Positions 27,001-36,000 of a DNA stretch of 64,000 nucleotides are shown here, piece after piece; position 1 is the first letter of the stretch, and each line of letters begins with the position of its first letter. The DNA comes from Myxococcales bacterium (lineage in GTDB: Bacteria > Myxococcota_A > Polyangia > Polyangiales > DASUME01): contig JASGJH010000001.1 of assembly GCA_047601445.1 (NCBI GenBank), positions 4,768,001 to 4,832,000 on the forward strand, written 5' to 3'. Position numbers: made by a program.

Positions 27001-30000
27001 GGCATCGCCGCCAGACAGGTCGTCACCGGAGTCGGGCGTCTCTTCGATCTGGTTCAGGTGTTGATCGATCGGCGAGCCATCACTGCCGCAAGCACCGAGC
27101 AGAAGGATCGCAAAGAAAGGCATGAGACGGGCAGAGCTGAGGGCTCGCATTCCGTGGACTCCTGGTTTCTGGAAAAGGGAAATCGCGGCGTCTGGGGCCG
27201 ACCTGCGGCACCGCGTCCGCCACAACGCGAGCTCCGTTCCTAGCAACCACGACTCGCGCGCTGCTCGTCGAAAGCCGTGTCGACGGGCAATTGAACGCAG
27301 CCTGGTCAGCTGCGCTCCTCGCTATCGGCTACGCACGTGACGCGATCGCGGGCGCGCAGAACGCCAGCACACGCTCGCTCTGTGGCAGCTCGAACCGGTG
27401 TCGAGGGGCCGCGCACATGTCTTGAATTCAGGCCAAAACCGTCGCAAGTTCAGCGCATGGTTCGCAGGCCGCGGCACACCATGCCACACGACCTTCCCGA
27501 CGTGCGGGACGGCCTCACACGCCTCGAGCGCGCGGTGCTGGTGGAGCTCGCTCGCGCCCGCGAAGAATACGGCGAGCGACATGTGCCCAGCGCGCTCTTG
27601 TACGGACGCGTGGTGGAGCACGTCGACGTGAGCGTCGAGGAGTTCCAGCGCGTGCTGCGCAGGCTAGCTGGAGGCTGACCGAGTCAGGCGTCCGTTTACT
27701 CGAAAGCGATATCCCGGAAGTCGCTGATCGGTTCGTAGCCGATGCGCGGATAGATGTGGTTCGAGATCGGGTTGGCGAGATCGGTGAACAGACACGCCTG
27801 CCGCTTGCCGGCGTCGAGCACGTACTGGCTGAGCGCAGACACCAGCGCGGTGGCATAGCCCTCGCCGCGCCGTTCAGGGGGCGTGTAGACGGGACCGATG
27901 GATGCGCTGGTGGCGAGCTCTCGCCCGACCGCCGCCAGGCACACGGGGCCGCCGTGATCCCAGACGAACACGCGCCCGGCATCGAGTGCGCGGCGTGCGA
28001 TGCCCACCGGGTCGACTGGATCGCGCGGGATCGCTTCGCGATGGAAGGCCCGGAACCAGTGGGTCACGAGGCTGGCATCGCGCGGCTTGGCCAGGCGCAT
28101 CACCCCGGGCACGCTGGGGCGGAACTTGACGCGCTTGAGGGAGAAAAGCCGCAGGTCGAGCTCGTTGCGGGAGCGGACGCACTGACGACGCGCCCAGGCC
28201 TCGGCAAACGCCGACGCGCTGGCGGCGGGACCGTGCACGGCCGGAAATTGCGCCTGCACCTGCGCCAGGAATTCGGCCAGGGCTTCGGCGGACTCGCGAT
28301 CGAGCTCCGAGATCACCAAGTTTCGTGGGGGAGTCTGAAGCGCGCAGCCGCGGATTTCCCCGTAACATCGAATCACCGCGAACCAGGCGCTCGGGCAGAC
28401 CTGGGGCTCGTGGATCAGTAGCTGGGTGACCCCCAGCTTCAGGCCACAGGTGAGCTCGCGATCCGCCAGGAAGCCCTGGGCCGTCGCGAGAAAATCCCGC
28501 GCATTCGACAGGCGCTCCACGCTGCGCATTCCAACCGCTTATCGCCGCTCGGTCCTGGCCGTCAAGGTCACTCCCCGGAACCCTCCTGGTCACGGCCGTG
28601 GGGCCCGTGATCGGACCTGGCGCGCGGCGTCCCCATCCAGGCTCAGGTCGAACTCGGTCACTGAGTCTGAGCTCACTGATAGTGAATGATCTTTCAGTGG
28701 GATTTTTTGGCGTCGTTTCGCTGTTTTGGACAGCGTTCAGACTTGCTTGTCAAAGCGCATCTGACTACACCGGCCGCAAGGCCAGGGGGAGGACGAGGGG
28801 CATGGTTCGTAACAGCTACGACGTCGTGGTGGTCGGTGCAGGACCAGTGGGCTCGGTGGCTGCGGTGGCAGCCGCGCGGACCGGGGCACGCGTGCTCTTG
28901 CTGGAGGCCAATCCCGAAGCCGCGCGCCGCTTCGCGGGCGAATGGCTGCATCCCACGGGAGTCGCGGTGCTCGATCGCCTGCGCATCGGCCGCCTCGAAG
29001 GCGCCGACGCACGCACGGGCTACGGCTTCGTGGTGTTCCCGGACGACGGAAGCGAACCCGTGGAGCTCGCCTATCCGAGCGGCCAGGTCGCGCTGGCCTG
29101 CGAGCACTCGAGCATCGTGGAAGCGCTGCGCGAGCGCGCCGCCTCGCTCGACGAGGTCGACTATCTGCCCCACGCGCGCGTGACCAGCATCGAGGGTCAC
29201 CGCGTGACCTTCCGCACCCGCGAGGGTGAGCACAGCGTGCATGCCGGCAAGGTCATCGGCGCCGACGGGCGCTCCTCCGTGGCGCGCAAGGCGCTCGGGC
29301 TCTCCGCCCACGGCGCCCCGGTCTCGTACATGGCCTCGGTGGAGCTGCGCGGCGTGGAGCTGCCGGTCGAGGGCTATGGTCACGTGGTGCTCGGCGGGCC
29401 CGGGCCCGTGCTCATGTACCGCATCGGGCCCGACCTGATCCGCGGCTGCTTCGACGTGCCGCTGTCGTTCGACGCCAGCCGCCGCAACCCCACCTTCCTG
29501 TGGGACGGCTTCTCGGCCGTGCTGCCGGGGCGTCTGCGACGCTCCTTCCGCGACGCGCTCGAGCGGGGACCCGTGCACTGGGCCGTCAACCGCTTCGCGC
29601 CGCGCGGCTTCTATGGGCAAGGCCCTGTCTGGCTGGCGGGCGACGCGGTGGGGCATTTCCACCCGCTCACCGCGGCGGGCATGACGCTCGGCTTCCTCGA
29701 CGCCGAGCTCGCGGGCGAGACCGGCTCGCTCACCGAATACCATCGCACGCGCGAGCGCGGCAGCTACGTGCCCGAATTGCTCTCCAACGCGCTTTACCAG
29801 GTGCTCTCCCGCGAAGACGCCAGCGCCACCGCCGTTCGCAGTGCGGTGTACCGCGTGTGGCGCAAGAGCCCGTCCGAGCGCGAGCGCACCATGCGCCTGC
29901 TGATGGGCGCCACGTCCAGCCGCTCCACCTTCGGCGCCTCGTTCACGCGCATGGCCCTGTCGGCCTTCCGCAACACCATCAGCGAGCTCTCCCAGGCACG

Positions 30001-33000: not shown

Positions 33001-36000
33001 GTCTTGGGGGCCTACGAGGAGCTGCCCAACAAGCCGCTGCGCCCGCGCGCGCTGGCCGTGACACTGGAGCAAATCGACGCCGAAGATCAGAACACGAACT
33101 ACGTGTGTTTGGGCCCCGTCAACAAGCTCTATCACATGTGGGTCTGGCACCACGAGCGCCCCTACGGCACCGAGCTCAAGCGGCACCGCGAGCGTCTGCC
33201 CGAGTATCTCTGGAAGGCCAAGGACGGCACCAAGATGCAGGGCTATCACTCGTCGCAGCTGTGGGACACCACGTTCGCGGTTCAAGCGGTGCACGCGAGT
33301 GGCCGTGAGAACGACTACGCCAAGCTGCTCGAGCGCGCCCATCAGTTCATCGACGACAACCAGGTGCGGGAGGATCCGCCGCTCAAGGCGCAGAGCTTCC
33401 GCGACCCCACCAAGGGCGGCTGGTGCTTCTCGGCCAAAGACAACGGCTGGATCGTCAGCGACTGCACCGCCGAGGGTTTGCGCGCAGCCATGTTGCTCGC
33501 GCCCCGCGTGAAGACACCGCTCTCGAAGGACCGCCTGCTCGACGCGGTGGAGTACCTGCTGTGGAGCCAAACCCAGGGCGGCGGCTGGGCCAGCTACGAA
33601 CCCACGCGCGGCCCGCGCTGGCTCGAGAAGCTCAACCCCTCCAACTGCTTCCACAACATCATGATCGACTACCCGTACGTGGAGTGCACGGCGGCGTCGA
33701 TGCTGGCGCTCGAGCAGTTCCGCGAGCTCTACCCGAACGATCGCGAGGCCGACATCGCGCGCGCCATCGAGCGCGGCAAGAGCTTCCTGCTGCGTGAGCA
33801 GCGCTCGGACGGCTCCTTCGAGGGCTCCTGGGCCATCTGCTTCACCTACGGCACCTGGTTCGGCATCGAAGGTCTCAAGGCAGGCGGACTCGCCGAGAAG
33901 AGCGCGCCCATCCGCCGGGCATGCGAGTTCCTGATCTCCAAGCAGCTGCCCGACGGCGGCTGGGGCGAGACTGCGGAGAGCAACCTCAAGCGTACCTACG
34001 TACACGCCGAGAAGGGTCAGGCCGTGATGACAGCCTGGGCATTGCTCGCGCTGGTCGCAGGCGGCGAGGGCAAGTCACGGGCGGTGGAAGAGGGCATTCG
34101 CTTCCTGATCACCCAGCAGAGCGACGACGGCAGCTATCCGGACGAGCACATCGCCGGCATGTTCAACAAGAGCTGCGCCATTCACTACGAAAACTACCTC
34201 AAGGTCTTCCCGTTGTGGGCCCTGGGTGAGGCTCGCCGCGCACGCGGCGTGGGCAGGTGACCCCCGCGCGGCTTGCCGTGCGTGTGGGTGTCATCGGTCT
34301 TGAGCACGCTGGGCGCCACCGCTTCGCCTAACTCGGGCCCCTCGTGATCGAGCAGTGAAGCCTCGTGGATGGCCTCGTCCGTGAGGTCCACTTCGTCCCA
34401 GGCATGGCTCGCGCCTTGCCCGGTGTTGAAGGGACGCGTCTGCGCCAGCCTGGGTGTATTCGGGGGCGGCGGGAGCCCGCGGGCCAAACGCTTGGTCGGC
34501 CCGTTCGCCATGGCCCTGAGCAGCGCGCGCTCCCATGATTTCAAGCTTCCCGCCTCGGCTTCGAGCTCGAGCGCGTCGCTGAGCGCGGCGCCGTCGTCGC
34601 TCGGGAAGTCGTCCTCGTTGAGTTCGCGCGGCCACTCGGAGTTCACGCTCTGCTCCACCGCCGACGCCAAGAACTGCTTGCCGAGGTCGTCTGGATCCAC
34701 GGAGAGCCCCGACTCCGCGGGCGCCACCGATCCGACCTGCTCGGAGATGTGCGTTGGCTGCGCGGTCACCGAAAGAGATGTCTTCAGCGTCGCCATACGC
34801 AATTCAATCTGGCGCCGTCGTGGGACGCTTGCCAGGTCTTTCCACCTTGCACTCGCGAAACACTAGGCGGCGGAGGCGCGGCGGTACTCCGGAGACAATG
34901 CCGCTTCGCGCTTCCAGGCCTCGAGCAGGGCGCGGTTATCGTGTTGCCAGGGATGAAAGTTCACTTTGAAGAAGGCTAGATAGGGCTTGAGCAAGCTCTG
35001 TAGACCGCGCGGCCGAAACACGAAGCGACCGAGCTCGCTCCAGGCGCCGACGCTGCCGAGAATGCCGTCGGCGTGCATCAACCTCAGCTGCTGCTCCACC
35101 ACCTTGCCCCAGAAAATGGCGGTCGTACCGAGCATCACCACGGCGCGCTCGGCGTAGGTCCCGCCCACCTGCTCGAAGACGTCGAAGGCCACCGCCTTGT
35201 GCTCGTTCTCCTCGGCCGCGTGCCAGCGCCAGAGCGCCGCCATGGCCGGGTGGGCGCCCTCGAGCAAGGTCGAGTCAGGCTGGAGCAGAAGTTCGGCGAG
35301 CAACGCCGTGAAGTGCTCGAGGCAGACGGTGACCGCGAGCTGGATACGCTTGGGATCGTGGCGCACGCCCGCCAGGATGCGCTCGATGCGGCGCTCCATC
35401 GCGTCGATGGGAAACCCCTGGGCGCGCAGCATCTCGTTGTACCGTACGTGCTCGCGGCTGTGGATGCCCTCCTGGGCGCAGAACGCCTGCACTTGCCGGC
35501 GCAGGGGCTCGCTCCGAAGCTGCTCACGATAGGCCTTCACGCTGTGCACGAAGAAGCGCTCACCGGGCGGAAAGAACACCGACAGGTTGTTGAAGAGCAA
35601 CGTCACGGGCCGCGATCCGTTGTGCCAGTAGCGCGGCACCGCGGGGCCCACATCGAAGCAGAAATTTCGGATCTCGGGGATCGGCTCGGCGCCTGCTTGG
35701 TCGGGCATCGAGCGGCTCGCTTGCGACATGATCTACCTCCGAGCCTGCGCACGCAGCTCTTAGAAGCCTGCGCCGCCGAGCCGTTCGCCGGTGCCTCTTC
35801 GATTGGTCATCTGAGGCCAATTCTGCGGGAAATAGCGCGGCGATTCTCCTCGCTGAGGCGTAAATGCACCGCACAGCCCCTGGACCGCATGGGAGCGCGC
35901 TACCGGATCGAACCGAAAGCCGTGCGATTCGTGCGGGCGCTTTGTGCGGAGGCGGGAGAGTCGGGCTACTTTTTCGCCGCCCTCGGAGAAAGCTCCCGCA

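Follow-up and report, generated by a model that had tools for sequence, protein, structure and literature searches.

A squalene epoxidase, a cyclase-like barrel and a squalene synthase in one reading frame beside an oxidosqualene cyclase gene of a Myxococcales bacterium

Why would a bacterium carry two consecutive enzymes of early sterol synthesis in a single polypeptide, and what is the cyclase-like barrel that lies between them? The window analysed here, a stretch of 64,000 nucleotides, contains such a three-part gene directly followed by an oxidosqualene cyclase gene. We consider it likely that the two genes form a compact unit leading from farnesyl diphosphate (FPP) to the first sterol, in which the barrel would act as a non-catalytic spacer or platform.

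Gene layout and integrity of the long frame

The three-part gene P0001 (28802-32218, + strand) occupies a single frame of 1138 aa plus stop, within a stop-to-stop frame of the + strand (28598..32218) whose GC3 is 0.86. Read directly from the DNA, the purine-rich GGGGGAGGACGAGGGG (28785..28800, +) is followed by GC and then by the ATG at 28802, and is probably the ribosome-binding stretch of this gene. A 17-nt spacer with AGGAG (32219..32235, +) precedes the ATG of the cyclase gene P0002 (32236..34260, +; 674 aa), which was recognised by its Pfam and NCBIfam scores and by its match to human lanosterol synthase. The first-pass annotation had placed a cyclase 17 nt downstream, and the frame with its DCTAE motif agrees with this. 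The two genes are probably co-transcribed.

It could be argued that the long frame is artificial, two or three real genes having been joined by faulty assembly or annotation. Indeed, in one Cystobacter fuscus assembly (L012) the gene is split between two frames by a shift in the linker, near nt 7404-7413, and the locus tags that Wei et al. 2016 (PMC4919349) give for the epoxidase and the cyclase lie two apart in both C. fuscus and C. coralloides. However, the window's frame is uninterrupted in a single-contig genome of 9.5 Mb that holds both fusion and cyclase, and another C. fuscus record is an intact 1163-aa protein. Moreover, homologues of the fusion at E<=0.001 numbered 342, as reported before; among the 120 matches listed, 106 are at least 1100 aa long, from five kinds of source, the others having 1000-1099 aa (5), 800-999 aa (7) or fewer than 800 aa (2). 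We therefore give the artefact almost no credence.

The enzyme domains and the adjacent cyclase

The composition proposed by the first-pass annotation was recovered by Pfam, by sequence matches in the structure database, by a full-length model and by Foldseek, in the order given in its body; its title, which put the synthase first and the epoxidase last, had this reversed, since the epoxidase is N-terminal and the synthase C-terminal. Its Pfam ranges (FAD_binding_3 6-302, SE 151-396, SQHop_cyclase_C 609-707, SQS_PSY 807-1099) were reproduced identically. The full-length model (pLDDT 86.2) contains three folded domains and two low-confidence linkers. Linker 1 (residues 445-471; 30134..30214, +) is predicted to be disordered, with pLDDT below 50 for residues 445-464 and 466-471, and mean pairwise identity over residues 401-470 is 0.36; linker 2 (residues 787-794; 31160..31183, +) has pLDDT below 50 throughout. 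No hydrophobic stretch suggesting a transmembrane helix was found in the whole fusion sequence.

The squalene epoxidase domain (residues 1-444; 28802..30133, +) carries the motifs GAGPVG (residues 12-17, nt 28835-28852), GEWLHPTG (46-53) and GDAVGHFHPLTAAGMT (280-295, nt 29639-29686); helices 374-435 form its end. The Pfam families SE (73.3 bits, cut-off 20.1) and FAD_binding_3 both exceed their thresholds. In the match to human SQLE (6c6n; 2e-25), the GxGxxG, GE..QPGG-like and GD....HPLTxxGM motifs are aligned in register, and Foldseek gives TM-to-target values of 0.81-0.82 (0.81 for SQLE). The domain thus resembles human SQLE in its FAD Rossmann motif, SE-specific domain (PF08491), GD....HPLT..GM motif and overall fold, including the C-terminal helices; in contrast to SQLE, it is without an N-terminal regulatory or membrane region and is joined through the barrel to squalene synthase. 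PF08491 occurs nowhere else in the genome, making this its sole epoxidase domain. This FAD-dependent domain would convert squalene to 2,3-oxidosqualene.

The squalene synthase domain (residues 795-1130; 31184..32191, +) contains both Asp-rich motifs, DTVED (838-842, nt 31313-31327) and DVTDD (996-1000, nt 31787-31801), and D838, E841, D842, D996, D999 and D1000 are invariant in all 43 sequences compared. SQS_PSY, with 149.7 bits (1.6e-43), likewise exceeds its threshold, and the PDB squalene synthases 7wgh (8e-24) and human 1ezf (1.5e-16) match better than CrtM (1.1e-11) or HpnC (4.4e-4); Foldseek places the domain on human 3vja with a TM-to-target of 0.84. The likeness to the single-step squalene synthases human FDFT1 (1ezf/3vja) and 7wgh extends to the two motifs and the all-helical fold. 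The window's synthase differs from both in forming the C-terminus of a fusion and in falling under the NCBIfam squalene synthase equivalog cut-off (124.3 bits against 286.75), and from FDFT1 in having no hydrophobic tail that would correspond to the eukaryotic C-terminal membrane anchor. Only one other gene of the genome matches PF00494; it scores best as phytoene synthase and adjoins a CrtI-family desaturase. Judged by these profile matches, the fusion holds the genome's only squalene-synthase-type domain, which would make squalene from two farnesyl diphosphates, with presqualene diphosphate as the intermediate.

In the adjacent cyclase, DCTAE is intact (residues 409-413, nt 33460-33474) and invariant in 13 of 13 relatives, and human lanosterol synthase 1w6k matches at 7.7e-188. 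The NCBIfam osq_cycl score of 710.8 is below the cut-off of 851; on these curated scores automatic annotation would assign a name to neither the synthase domain nor the cyclase, which speaks against our reading. Residues Y337, N403 and V407 correspond to human positions 381, 449 and 453, and according to Wei et al. 2016 (PMC4919349), Val at human position 453 goes with lanosterol in every bacterium tested. The product is predicted to be lanosterol because of this Val. Of the earlier label "cycloartenol/lanosterol-type", the assignment to oxidosqualene cyclases holds, and the ambiguity is removed, the same residue pointing to lanosterol.

Ancestry and catalytic status of the middle barrel

Between the two enzymes lies an (alpha/alpha)6 barrel (residues 472-786; 30215..31159, +), recognised by predicted folds, VIA-align, hhalign and PF13243. 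A separate fold of this domain, built on a 28-row alignment, has 12 helices (pLDDT 92.3, pTM 0.89). Its sequence contains three QW-like motifs (at 582, 640 and 688), a conserved Arg-rich helix, MAARMGLARRPMA (residues 526-538, nt 30377-30415), and the motifs SDFAS (559-563) and PDLATTE (607-613). The Pfam SQHop_cyclase_C match at 609-707 exceeds its threshold (28.5 versus 26.1 bits), and PF13243 is matched by 20 of 28 family members. The Foldseek neighbours were the same set as in the first-pass annotation, namely 1w6j (1e-6), 3sqc (2.7e-6), 8pak (3e-5), 8paj (3.4e-5) and drimenyl diphosphate synthase. In VIA-align, human OSC 1w6k (Z 24.6), 1gsz (Z 23.8) and 8paj (Z 22.6) are closely followed by generic (alpha/alpha)6 barrels (Z 20.3), so that the fold alone is no proof of cyclase ancestry. 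The argument for such ancestry comes from profile comparison: hhalign relates the barrel to the OSC family with a probability of 99.6 (E 8.8e-24) and places residues 562-747 on cyclase residues 412-629, with a stretch of about 20 residues missing from the barrel. This comparison makes the domain a homologue of the C-terminal (beta) barrel of class II triterpene cyclases, from which it would have descended. Among 1.84 billion representatives, full-length matches were found exclusively within fusion proteins, and no stand-alone full-length relative was found.

Like human OSC 1w6k, the squalene-hopene cyclase of A. acidocaldarius (1gsz), MstE (6sbb) and 8paj/8pak, the domain combines an (alpha/alpha)6 barrel with QW-like motifs. 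It differs from these cyclases as a single barrel that has no invariant DxDD/DCTAE-type acid and a depleted aromatic lining, and that is set within a fusion, with another enzyme on each side. The two sequence registers for its catalytic position disagree, and no invariant acid was found at either candidate position in 43 sequences: D560 is shared by 22 of them and D608 by 30 (35 have an acid there), and position 610 is variable (E10/R9/A6/H5). The earlier account of one cyclase-type barrel lacking a conserved catalytic acid is thus upheld by hhalign and by these column counts. The aromatic fraction is 4.8% versus 11.0% in the cyclase C-terminal domain, and in the hhalign alignment the aromatic cavity residues are mostly replaced. 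Mean pairwise identity is 0.375 in the barrel versus 0.58 in the epoxidase and 0.63 in the synthase, so the barrel evolves faster than both flanks as far as sequence identity indicates. We read the barrel as non-catalytic because it has no invariant acid, its aromatic content is halved and it evolves faster. This is an argument from absence, and an acid elsewhere in the barrel, not homologous to that of the cyclases, might take over the task; E490 (36/43), D503 (39/43, although His in the window's own protein) and D652 (38/43, inside a QW-like motif) are candidates, and MstE uses a variant DxD motif according to PMC12324236.

That the barrel is itself a working class II cyclase, using an unusual acid to form another cyclic terpenoid, is very improbable in our view. 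Working monodomain beta-only cyclases do exist (MstE and the solved myxobacterial 8paj and 8pak) and are among the nearest structures, and D608 is most often acidic. Nevertheless, no acid is invariant, the proton-donor position is variable in either register, the aromatic lining is depleted, and the window's own protein has His at 503, the best-conserved Asp column.

Distribution among relatives and possible role of the barrel

According to the first-pass annotation, sterol-gene-bearing Myxococcota carry the fusion as a rule. Its presence in records of Cystobacter fuscus and Sandaracinus amylolyticus was found again, but the generalisation fails. Of 401 genomes drawn evenly from the phylum, 65 were matched and 27 had both parts; 6 genomes encode these in a single open frame and 21 in different frames. 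The earlier homologue search could return proteins of 625-1992 aa only, so split forms were invisible to it. The 80 related loci include 14 with separate adjacent genes, 4 with direct epoxidase-synthase fusions that have no barrel (about 850-900 aa) and 9 with a reduced spacer (about 1020 aa), which by profile is the C-terminal half of the barrel in 8 and unrecognisable in 1. Relatives thus form a series from separate genes through direct fusions and reduced-barrel forms to the full three-part form. The split relatives share homologous domains and the order epoxidase, synthase, cyclase with the window; because this order is kept, an epoxidase gene and a synthase gene lying side by side are the most likely origin of the fusion, and the barrel would be a lineage-specific addition.

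This series bears on two further explanations. The barrel might be an evolutionary relic, a piece of a cyclase gene trapped between fused genes with a linker function only and retained just because it folds and is harmless, as suggested by the reduced and barrel-less forms and by its being the least conserved folded part, level with the disordered linker. We nevertheless think this improbable, since Polyangiales, Sandaracinaceae and Cystobacter all keep a complete 12-helix barrel of 315 residues in which certain Arg, Phe and Thr positions are invariant, and this points to purifying selection. Alternatively, the barrel might do more than keep its neighbours apart and might serve in ligand binding or docking, as a degenerate cyclase that still binds squalene, oxidosqualene or lanosterol and passes the intermediate between sites, senses product for feedback or recruits the cyclase into a complex. 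Its fold is confidently retained at just 22-37% sequence identity, R529, F597, T612, A618 and A641 are invariant in 43/43 sequences (R535 in 42/43), and the Arg-rich helix is conserved. In addition, pathway enzymes are repeatedly fused in this phylum, including epoxidase-cyclase fusions (about 1160-1250 aa) that immediately precede the three-part gene in 7 loci, which suggests selection for physical coupling. The largely replaced aromatic cavity residues, the halved aromatic content and the missing stretch speak against such a role, as does the reduction or absence of the barrel in sister lineages, which suggests that it is dispensable for both enzymes; we hold this explanation to be possible though unlikely.

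We thus favour the spacer or platform. The barrel has kept its fold and QW-like repeats, while its catalytic acid and a large share of its aromatic lining are gone; as our best guess, it would be a rigid spacer or a lipid-facing platform that keeps both active sites close to the surface of the membrane, at which squalene would be handed over. The membrane- or squalene-handling role suggested in the first-pass annotation is likewise conjectural. The invariant residues of the barrel, to which our reading assigns no purpose, speak against it. Membrane contact may be made through the C-terminal helices of the epoxidase, as in human SQLE, and possibly through the barrel too.

No published description of the epoxidase-barrel-synthase architecture was found in the literature searched, and this layout appears to be undescribed, its component enzymes being ordinary. 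Another natural fusion in bacterial sterol synthesis is the CYP51-ferredoxin of Methylococcus capsulatus (PMC7947880). There too a sterol-pathway enzyme is joined to a partner domain; CYP51-ferredoxin couples an enzyme with its redox partner, whereas the window's fusion couples two consecutive enzymes via a putative pseudo-enzyme domain.

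The two adjacent genes and their predicted enzymes

The three-part protein P0001 (1138 residues) is encoded on the + strand at 28802-32218. Its stop-to-stop frame spans 28598..32218, and the ATG at 28802 is preceded by a purine-rich stretch. The oxidosqualene cyclase gene (32236..34260, +; 674 residues, P0002) starts 17 nt after the three-part stop codon, with AGGAG in front. In the stop-to-stop frames GC3 is 0.86 for the three-part gene and 0.90 for the cyclase gene, values expected of real genes where G+C is about 66-71%, as in this region.

The N-terminal part of P0001 carries the Pfam domains FAD_binding_3 (residues 6-302) and SE (PF08491, residues 151-396), the latter scoring 73.3 bits vs a gathering cut-off of 20.1. 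Human squalene monooxygenase (6c6n) aligned with this part at 2e-25. In that alignment the FAD-binding GxGxxG motif is GAGPVG at 12-17 and the GD....HPLT..GM motif is GDAVGHFHPLTAAGMT at 280-295; GAGPVG, GEWLHPTG and GDAVGHFHPLTAAGMT stand opposite human GAGVLGS, GEFLQPGG and GDAYNMRHPLTGGGMT. The predicted structure of the domain matched human SQLE with a Foldseek E of 1e-18 and a TM-to-target of 0.81-0.82. Sequence and model both point to a predicted squalene epoxidase, an FAD-dependent monooxygenase of family PF08491. The 450-residue chain of 6c6n is almost wholly covered by the domain (452 alignment columns). The last helices of this chain are membrane-associated, and in the part of the fusion that matches them W418, P419 and A421 are invariant (43-sequence alignment). 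No 19-residue window suggesting a transmembrane helix was found anywhere in the three-part protein, and hydrophobicity is highest in two stretches of it, the Rossmann strand-helix and a conserved helix of the synthase. We infer a monotopic membrane attachment.

The C-terminal part contains an SQS_PSY domain (PF00494, residues 807-1099; 149.7 bits vs the Pfam cut-off of 26). The acids of its Asp-rich motifs, DTVED at 838-842 and DVTDD at 996-1000, are invariant in 43 of 43 full-length relatives. Solved squalene synthases in the PDB matched this part at 8e-24 (7wgh) to 2e-14, with human 1ezf at 1.5e-16, and weaker matches were obtained for the dehydrosqualene synthase CrtM (1.1e-11), phytoene synthase (8.5e-11) and HpnC (4.4e-4). 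The NCBIfam equivalog cut-off for squalene synthase (TIGR01559) was not reached (124.3 vs 286.75 bits), and this model was still the best NCBIfam match there. Structurally, human squalene synthase matched the domain with a Foldseek TM-to-target of 0.84. By these profile comparisons the domain is nearer to squalene synthases than to phytoene, dehydrosqualene or HpnC/D synthases, and it is a predicted squalene synthase. The AlphaFold model of full-length P0001 on the 43-relative alignment reached pLDDT 86.2 and pTM 0.65, its low-confidence parts being only residues 445-471 and 787-794, one short loop and the tail.

In P0002, both cyclase domains were recovered (PF13249, 171.1 bits; PF13243, 215.5 bits), and human lanosterol synthase aligned over residues 30-665 at 7.7e-188, with VSDCTAE present. 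The DCTAE motif lies at 409-413 and is invariant in all 13 aligned relatives. Among NCBIfam models, TIGR01787 (squalene/oxidosqualene cyclases) scored 632.4 vs a cut-off of 322.7, and TIGR03463 (osq_cycl) 710.8 vs 851. Human positions 381, 449 and 453 correspond to Tyr, Asn and Val in P0002, V407 being opposite human V453; the same Asn/Val pair is found in plant lanosterol synthases. Wei et al. 2016 (PMC4919349) associate Val453 with lanosterol and Ile453 with cycloartenol in the bacteria tested. Given Val at this position and the rule of these authors, lanosterol is therefore the predicted product. The first-pass annotation had described a cyclase of the cycloartenol/lanosterol type: an oxidosqualene cyclase with DCTAE is what we find, and Val453 replaces the ambiguity over the product with a prediction of lanosterol.

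Ancestry and role of the middle barrel

Residues 472-786 were folded alone, since the Foldseek matches shown for the full-length model were only epoxidase-like and synthase ones. On a 28-row alignment they formed 12 helices with pLDDT 92.3 and pTM 0.89. The best Foldseek matches were human oxidosqualene cyclase (1e-6) and squalene-hopene cyclase (SHC, 2.7e-6), followed at 3e-5 by the single-barrel cyclases of 345 residues 8pak (Cystobacter fuscus) and 8paj (Archangium gephyra), with a TM-to-target of 0.59; drimenyl diphosphate synthase, ent-copalyl diphosphate synthase and MstE were also matched. An all-against-all structural search placed 1w6k first (Z 24.6, rmsd 3.5, 295 aligned), with 1gsz at 23.8 and 8paj at 22.6. 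Unrelated (alpha/alpha)6 barrels ranked next in the same search, at Z 18-20, so that the fold alone is not decisive for a cyclase ancestry.

The cyclase ancestry is settled by sequence profiles. The barrel profile matched PDB entries of SHC at 1.9e-18 and of oxidosqualene cyclase at 5.8e-16. With hhalign, the barrel aligned to the family of the neighbouring cyclase with a probability of 99.6 and an E of 8.8e-24, barrel residues 562-747 falling on cyclase residues 412-629, which belong to the C-terminal (beta) barrel of that enzyme. The Pfam model SQHop_cyclase_C scored 28.5 bits with the whole protein and 32.6 with the isolated domain (cut-off 26.1), over profile positions 135-230 of 319 only, and 20 of the 28 members of the barrel family matched PF13243 on their own (E<=0.001). 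A language-model search with the barrel led to clusters of squalene-cyclase C-terminal domains (0.91), and the domain has QW-like motifs at three sites, 582, 640 and 688. In the predicted structure there is one barrel between two disordered linkers, without the beta and gamma pair of triterpene cyclases. The PDB profile scores of the barrel are alike (SHC 70 bits, oxidosqualene cyclase 62, 8paj 45), and they do not separate the neighbouring cyclase, SHC and the myxobacterial monodomain cyclases as its source. Among 1.84 billion representative proteins, whole-barrel matches occurred only inside fusion proteins of 1137-1197 residues, and the other matches were partial and of repeat type. At the level of the phylum, the barrel profile found mostly the C-terminal barrels of true cyclases in partial matches (query about 95-260), and a full-length match in the genome carrying the window only (4-324, 414 bits). 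Since it consists mostly of true-cyclase barrels, this tally was left out of the distribution of the fusion.

No conserved catalytic acid of the DxDD or DCTAE type was found in the barrel in 43 sequences and two alignment registers. In the hhalign register (probability 99.6), cyclase Asp409 is opposite barrel S559/D560, and 22 of the 43 sequences have Asp in column 560. In the weaker HMMER register (4.8 bits), the PDVDDT of SHC lies over barrel PDLATT at 607-612, with DLAT at 608-611, and the proton-donor column 610 is E10/R9/A6/H5 and others across the 43 sequences. The best-conserved acidic column of the barrel is 503, Asp in 39 of 43 but His in P0001, and no acidic column is invariant. The share of aromatic residues is 4.8% in the barrel vs 11.0% in the cyclase C-terminal domain; in the hhalign alignment, cyclase GSWAICFTYGTWF stands opposite barrel ASELEGVLSNTAH. 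The barrel is also the fastest-evolving folded part of the protein, with a mean pairwise identity of 0.375 vs 0.58 for the epoxidase and 0.63 for the synthase. L491, R529, A562, F597, T612, A618 and A641 are invariant in it, and R535, R687 and R688 nearly so. We take the barrel to be a folded and selected, but probably non-catalytic, descendant of a cyclase beta barrel.

As to its role, we favour a rigid platform that would sit between the two enzymes at the membrane surface. The main rival is a ligand-binding or docking module. The predicted complex of barrel and cyclase gave no answer in either direction (score 0.00, mark 0.32). A more elaborate form of the ligand-binding reading makes the barrel a pseudo-cyclase, an ex-triterpene-cyclase domain turned into a triterpene-binding module for hand-off or sensing, and makes the three-part protein and the cyclase a bacterial sterol "metabolon"; we regard this as unlikely. 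Squalene and oxidosqualene, which are very hydrophobic, would then go from one active site to the next rather than diffuse freely in the membrane, and the independent epoxidase-synthase, epoxidase-barrel-synthase and epoxidase-cyclase fusions of Myxococcota would be alternative solutions to one channelling problem. The three-part protein would be a natural test case of whether consecutive membrane-lipid enzymes gain from physical coupling. If true, a class II cyclase barrel kept for another use without its catalytic acid would be a fate of this fold that is undescribed, as far as found in the searchable literature.

Split and fused forms across the phylum

The homologue search of the first-pass annotation was reproduced, with 342 matches, of which 106 of the 120 listed have at least 1100 residues; this search covered proteins of 625-1992 residues only. 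We then scored the open frames of 80 related loci from species-representative genomes with profiles built here for each of the three parts and for the cyclase. Nine loci had a full three-part frame, two had the gene in two frames (L012, from C. fuscus NCWS, and L015) and one had it cut by a contig end. Forms of about 1020-1215 residues that match the second half of the barrel profile only were found at eight loci (L016, L017, L019, L020, L022, L024, L029 and L057), and a 275-residue spacer without a barrel-profile match at one (L032). Direct epoxidase-synthase fusions with a spacer of about 35-70 residues accounted for four loci, epoxidase and synthase as separate adjacent frames for 14, and genes cut within the synthase for four. 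At the remaining 37, in Gemmatimonadota, Planctomycetota and others, no true epoxidase lay beside the synthase. The cyclase followed directly in 12 of the 80 loci and was 1-5 kb downstream in most others, including the eight half-barrel loci and L032, where it was not adjacent.

At seven loci of Sandaracinaceae and Polyangiales MAGs (L010, L011, L013, L015, L018, L025 and L031), an epoxidase-cyclase fusion of about 1160-1250 residues lies directly upstream of the three-part gene; these loci therefore hold two epoxidase paralogues. By Pfam, the frame at L013:3280-6783 contains SE and both cyclase domains. In C. fuscus NCWS, a frame shift at L012:7404-7413, in the linker after the epoxidase, splits the three-part gene. 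Another C. fuscus record (P0039) is an intact protein of 1163 residues, 98% identical to L012 on both sides of the shift. The shift would be due either to a sequencing error or to a difference between strains.

The phylum was also sampled evenly, with 401 genomes: 65 of them matched P0001 at E<=1e-30, under a stricter filter and with only two candidates scored per genome. Epoxidase and synthase shared one frame in six of them and lay in separate frames in 21, and 38 had one part only. The match was one alignment in three of the six (the genome carrying the window, G355 and G380) and was broken into two pieces in G220, G240 and G330. An epoxidase-type match in a frame of 1116-1394 residues without synthase occurred in 12 of the 401 genomes; five of these frames (1116, 1129, 1147, 1163 and 1199 residues) also match the barrel/cyclase profile, as epoxidase-cyclase fusions would. 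Fusion had been called the rule in sterol-gene-bearing Myxococcota; six shared-frame vs 21 separate-frame genomes do not bear this out, and thus make it a feature of lineages.

The synthase-domain tree was built from 64 of 79 rows, 15 distant stand-alone synthases being dropped, by the "quick" method with SH-aLRT support only, and its root was set by 12 rows from Gemmatimonadota, Planctomycetota, cyanobacteria and gammaproteobacteria. One group (support 81, not starred) brought together all 12 full three-part rows and three contig-truncated ones. A starred clade (98) united the nine reduced forms with a set of eight split forms, and three direct fusions were placed beside it without resolution. 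Another split set (L052-L055) and a single direct fusion lay outside. Fused and split rows are therefore interleaved in the tree. Fusion and barrel reduction have each happened, and probably fission too. The synthase tree does not distinguish gains from losses, and we claim no order.

It has been argued that the eukaryotic sterol pathway stems from the genes of Myxococcota (PMC8237579, PMC7306690). According to Santana-Molina et al. 2020 (PMC7306690), myxobacterial sqs is near osc, and "SHC-like" Myxobacteria sequences lack catalytic residues. In Wei et al. 2016 (PMC4919349), the locus tags listed for the epoxidase and the cyclase are two apart, both in C. fuscus and in C. coralloides. The trees and gene tables of PMC8237579 and PMC7306690 handle epoxidase, synthase and "SHC-like" as separate proteins. 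A word search for "fusion" and "fused" showed no mention of an epoxidase-synthase fusion, and no use of either word for these genes, in PMC7306690 and PMC8237579 (main text and supplement), PMC4919349, PMC10152446, PMC12004948 and PMC12324236, nor in Hoshino & Gaucher 2021 (main text and supplement). For these proteins, public records use the names "squalene/phytoene synthase family protein", "FAD-dependent oxidoreductase" and "squalene monooxygenase". No description of the three-part architecture was found in the openly full-text-searchable literature. The finding holds, and as far as sequence goes it is well characterised. What seems new, within that literature, is the three-part architecture with its pseudo-cyclase barrel, together with a family of alternative fusions; the enzymes are of known kinds and do not make up a system of a new kind. 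Some of the proteins handled as separate are domains of one polypeptide, in architectures that range from split to triple fusion within the phylum. This bears on how homologues are counted, on arguments from synteny and on how "divergent SHC-like" myxobacterial sequences without catalytic residues are read. Moreover, a soluble-looking single protein leading from farnesyl diphosphate to oxidosqualene would suit sterol or triterpenoid engineering in bacteria.

Other genes of the genome and of the window

The genome is a single contig of 9.50 Mb. PF08491 occurs genome-wide in the three-part gene only, and PF00494 there and in one other place, C1:9087004-9090792 (L001), where the gene scores best as phytoene synthase and adjoins a CrtI-family desaturase (605.7 bits). 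From its gene content, L001 is a predicted carotenoid cluster, which accounts for the second SQS_PSY match, and the genome would need the three-part gene for sterols. P0002 and the central part of the fusion contain cyclase domains, and there is a weak match in a 1660-residue frame elsewhere. This last match (L006, C1:611920-612240, -; SQHop_cyclase_C, 29.1 bits) lies in a large protein with a toroid-repeat part. A homologue of ERG4/ERG24-family sterol reductases is encoded at C1:3798341-3799627 (-) (L088; 404.7 bits, no NCBIfam match at 1e-10), and eight FA_hydroxylase-family genes are scattered over the genome, so that further sterol tailoring past the first cyclised product is possible.

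Upstream, the neighbours of the two genes are a GNAT acetyltransferase (opposite strand), an unassigned frame, a thioesterase, a DUF1254/DUF1214 protein, an EAL protein and a MatE transporter; downstream come an unassigned frame, a PF10118 metal-dependent hydrolase (opposite strand) and a fatty-acid cis/trans isomerase. These neighbours have no evident relation to sterols, and the unit therefore consists of two genes. The promoter and terminator scan returned no promoter-like sites and two terminator-like sites vs 2.7 expected, which is uninformative, and a sequencing-run search with both genes listed no run and no RNA holder.

Three frames with high GC3, at 25732-27321 (-), 34348-34863 (+) and 40669-42325 (+), matched no Pfam family at E<=0.001. 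Just past the cyclase gene, the PF10118 "predicted metal-dependent hydrolase" (34866-35732, -; 271.8 bits) and the fatty-acid cis/trans isomerase (CTI; 35004-38357, +; 840 bits) overlap when drawn stop-to-stop, and both families are related to membrane lipids. At 38571-40400 (+), a 610-residue protein has a match to ZU5 (25 bits, cut-off 21), a domain more familiar from animal proteins, and at 46328-50368 (+) there is a Ser/Thr kinase of 1347 residues with AAA_16 and TPR parts.
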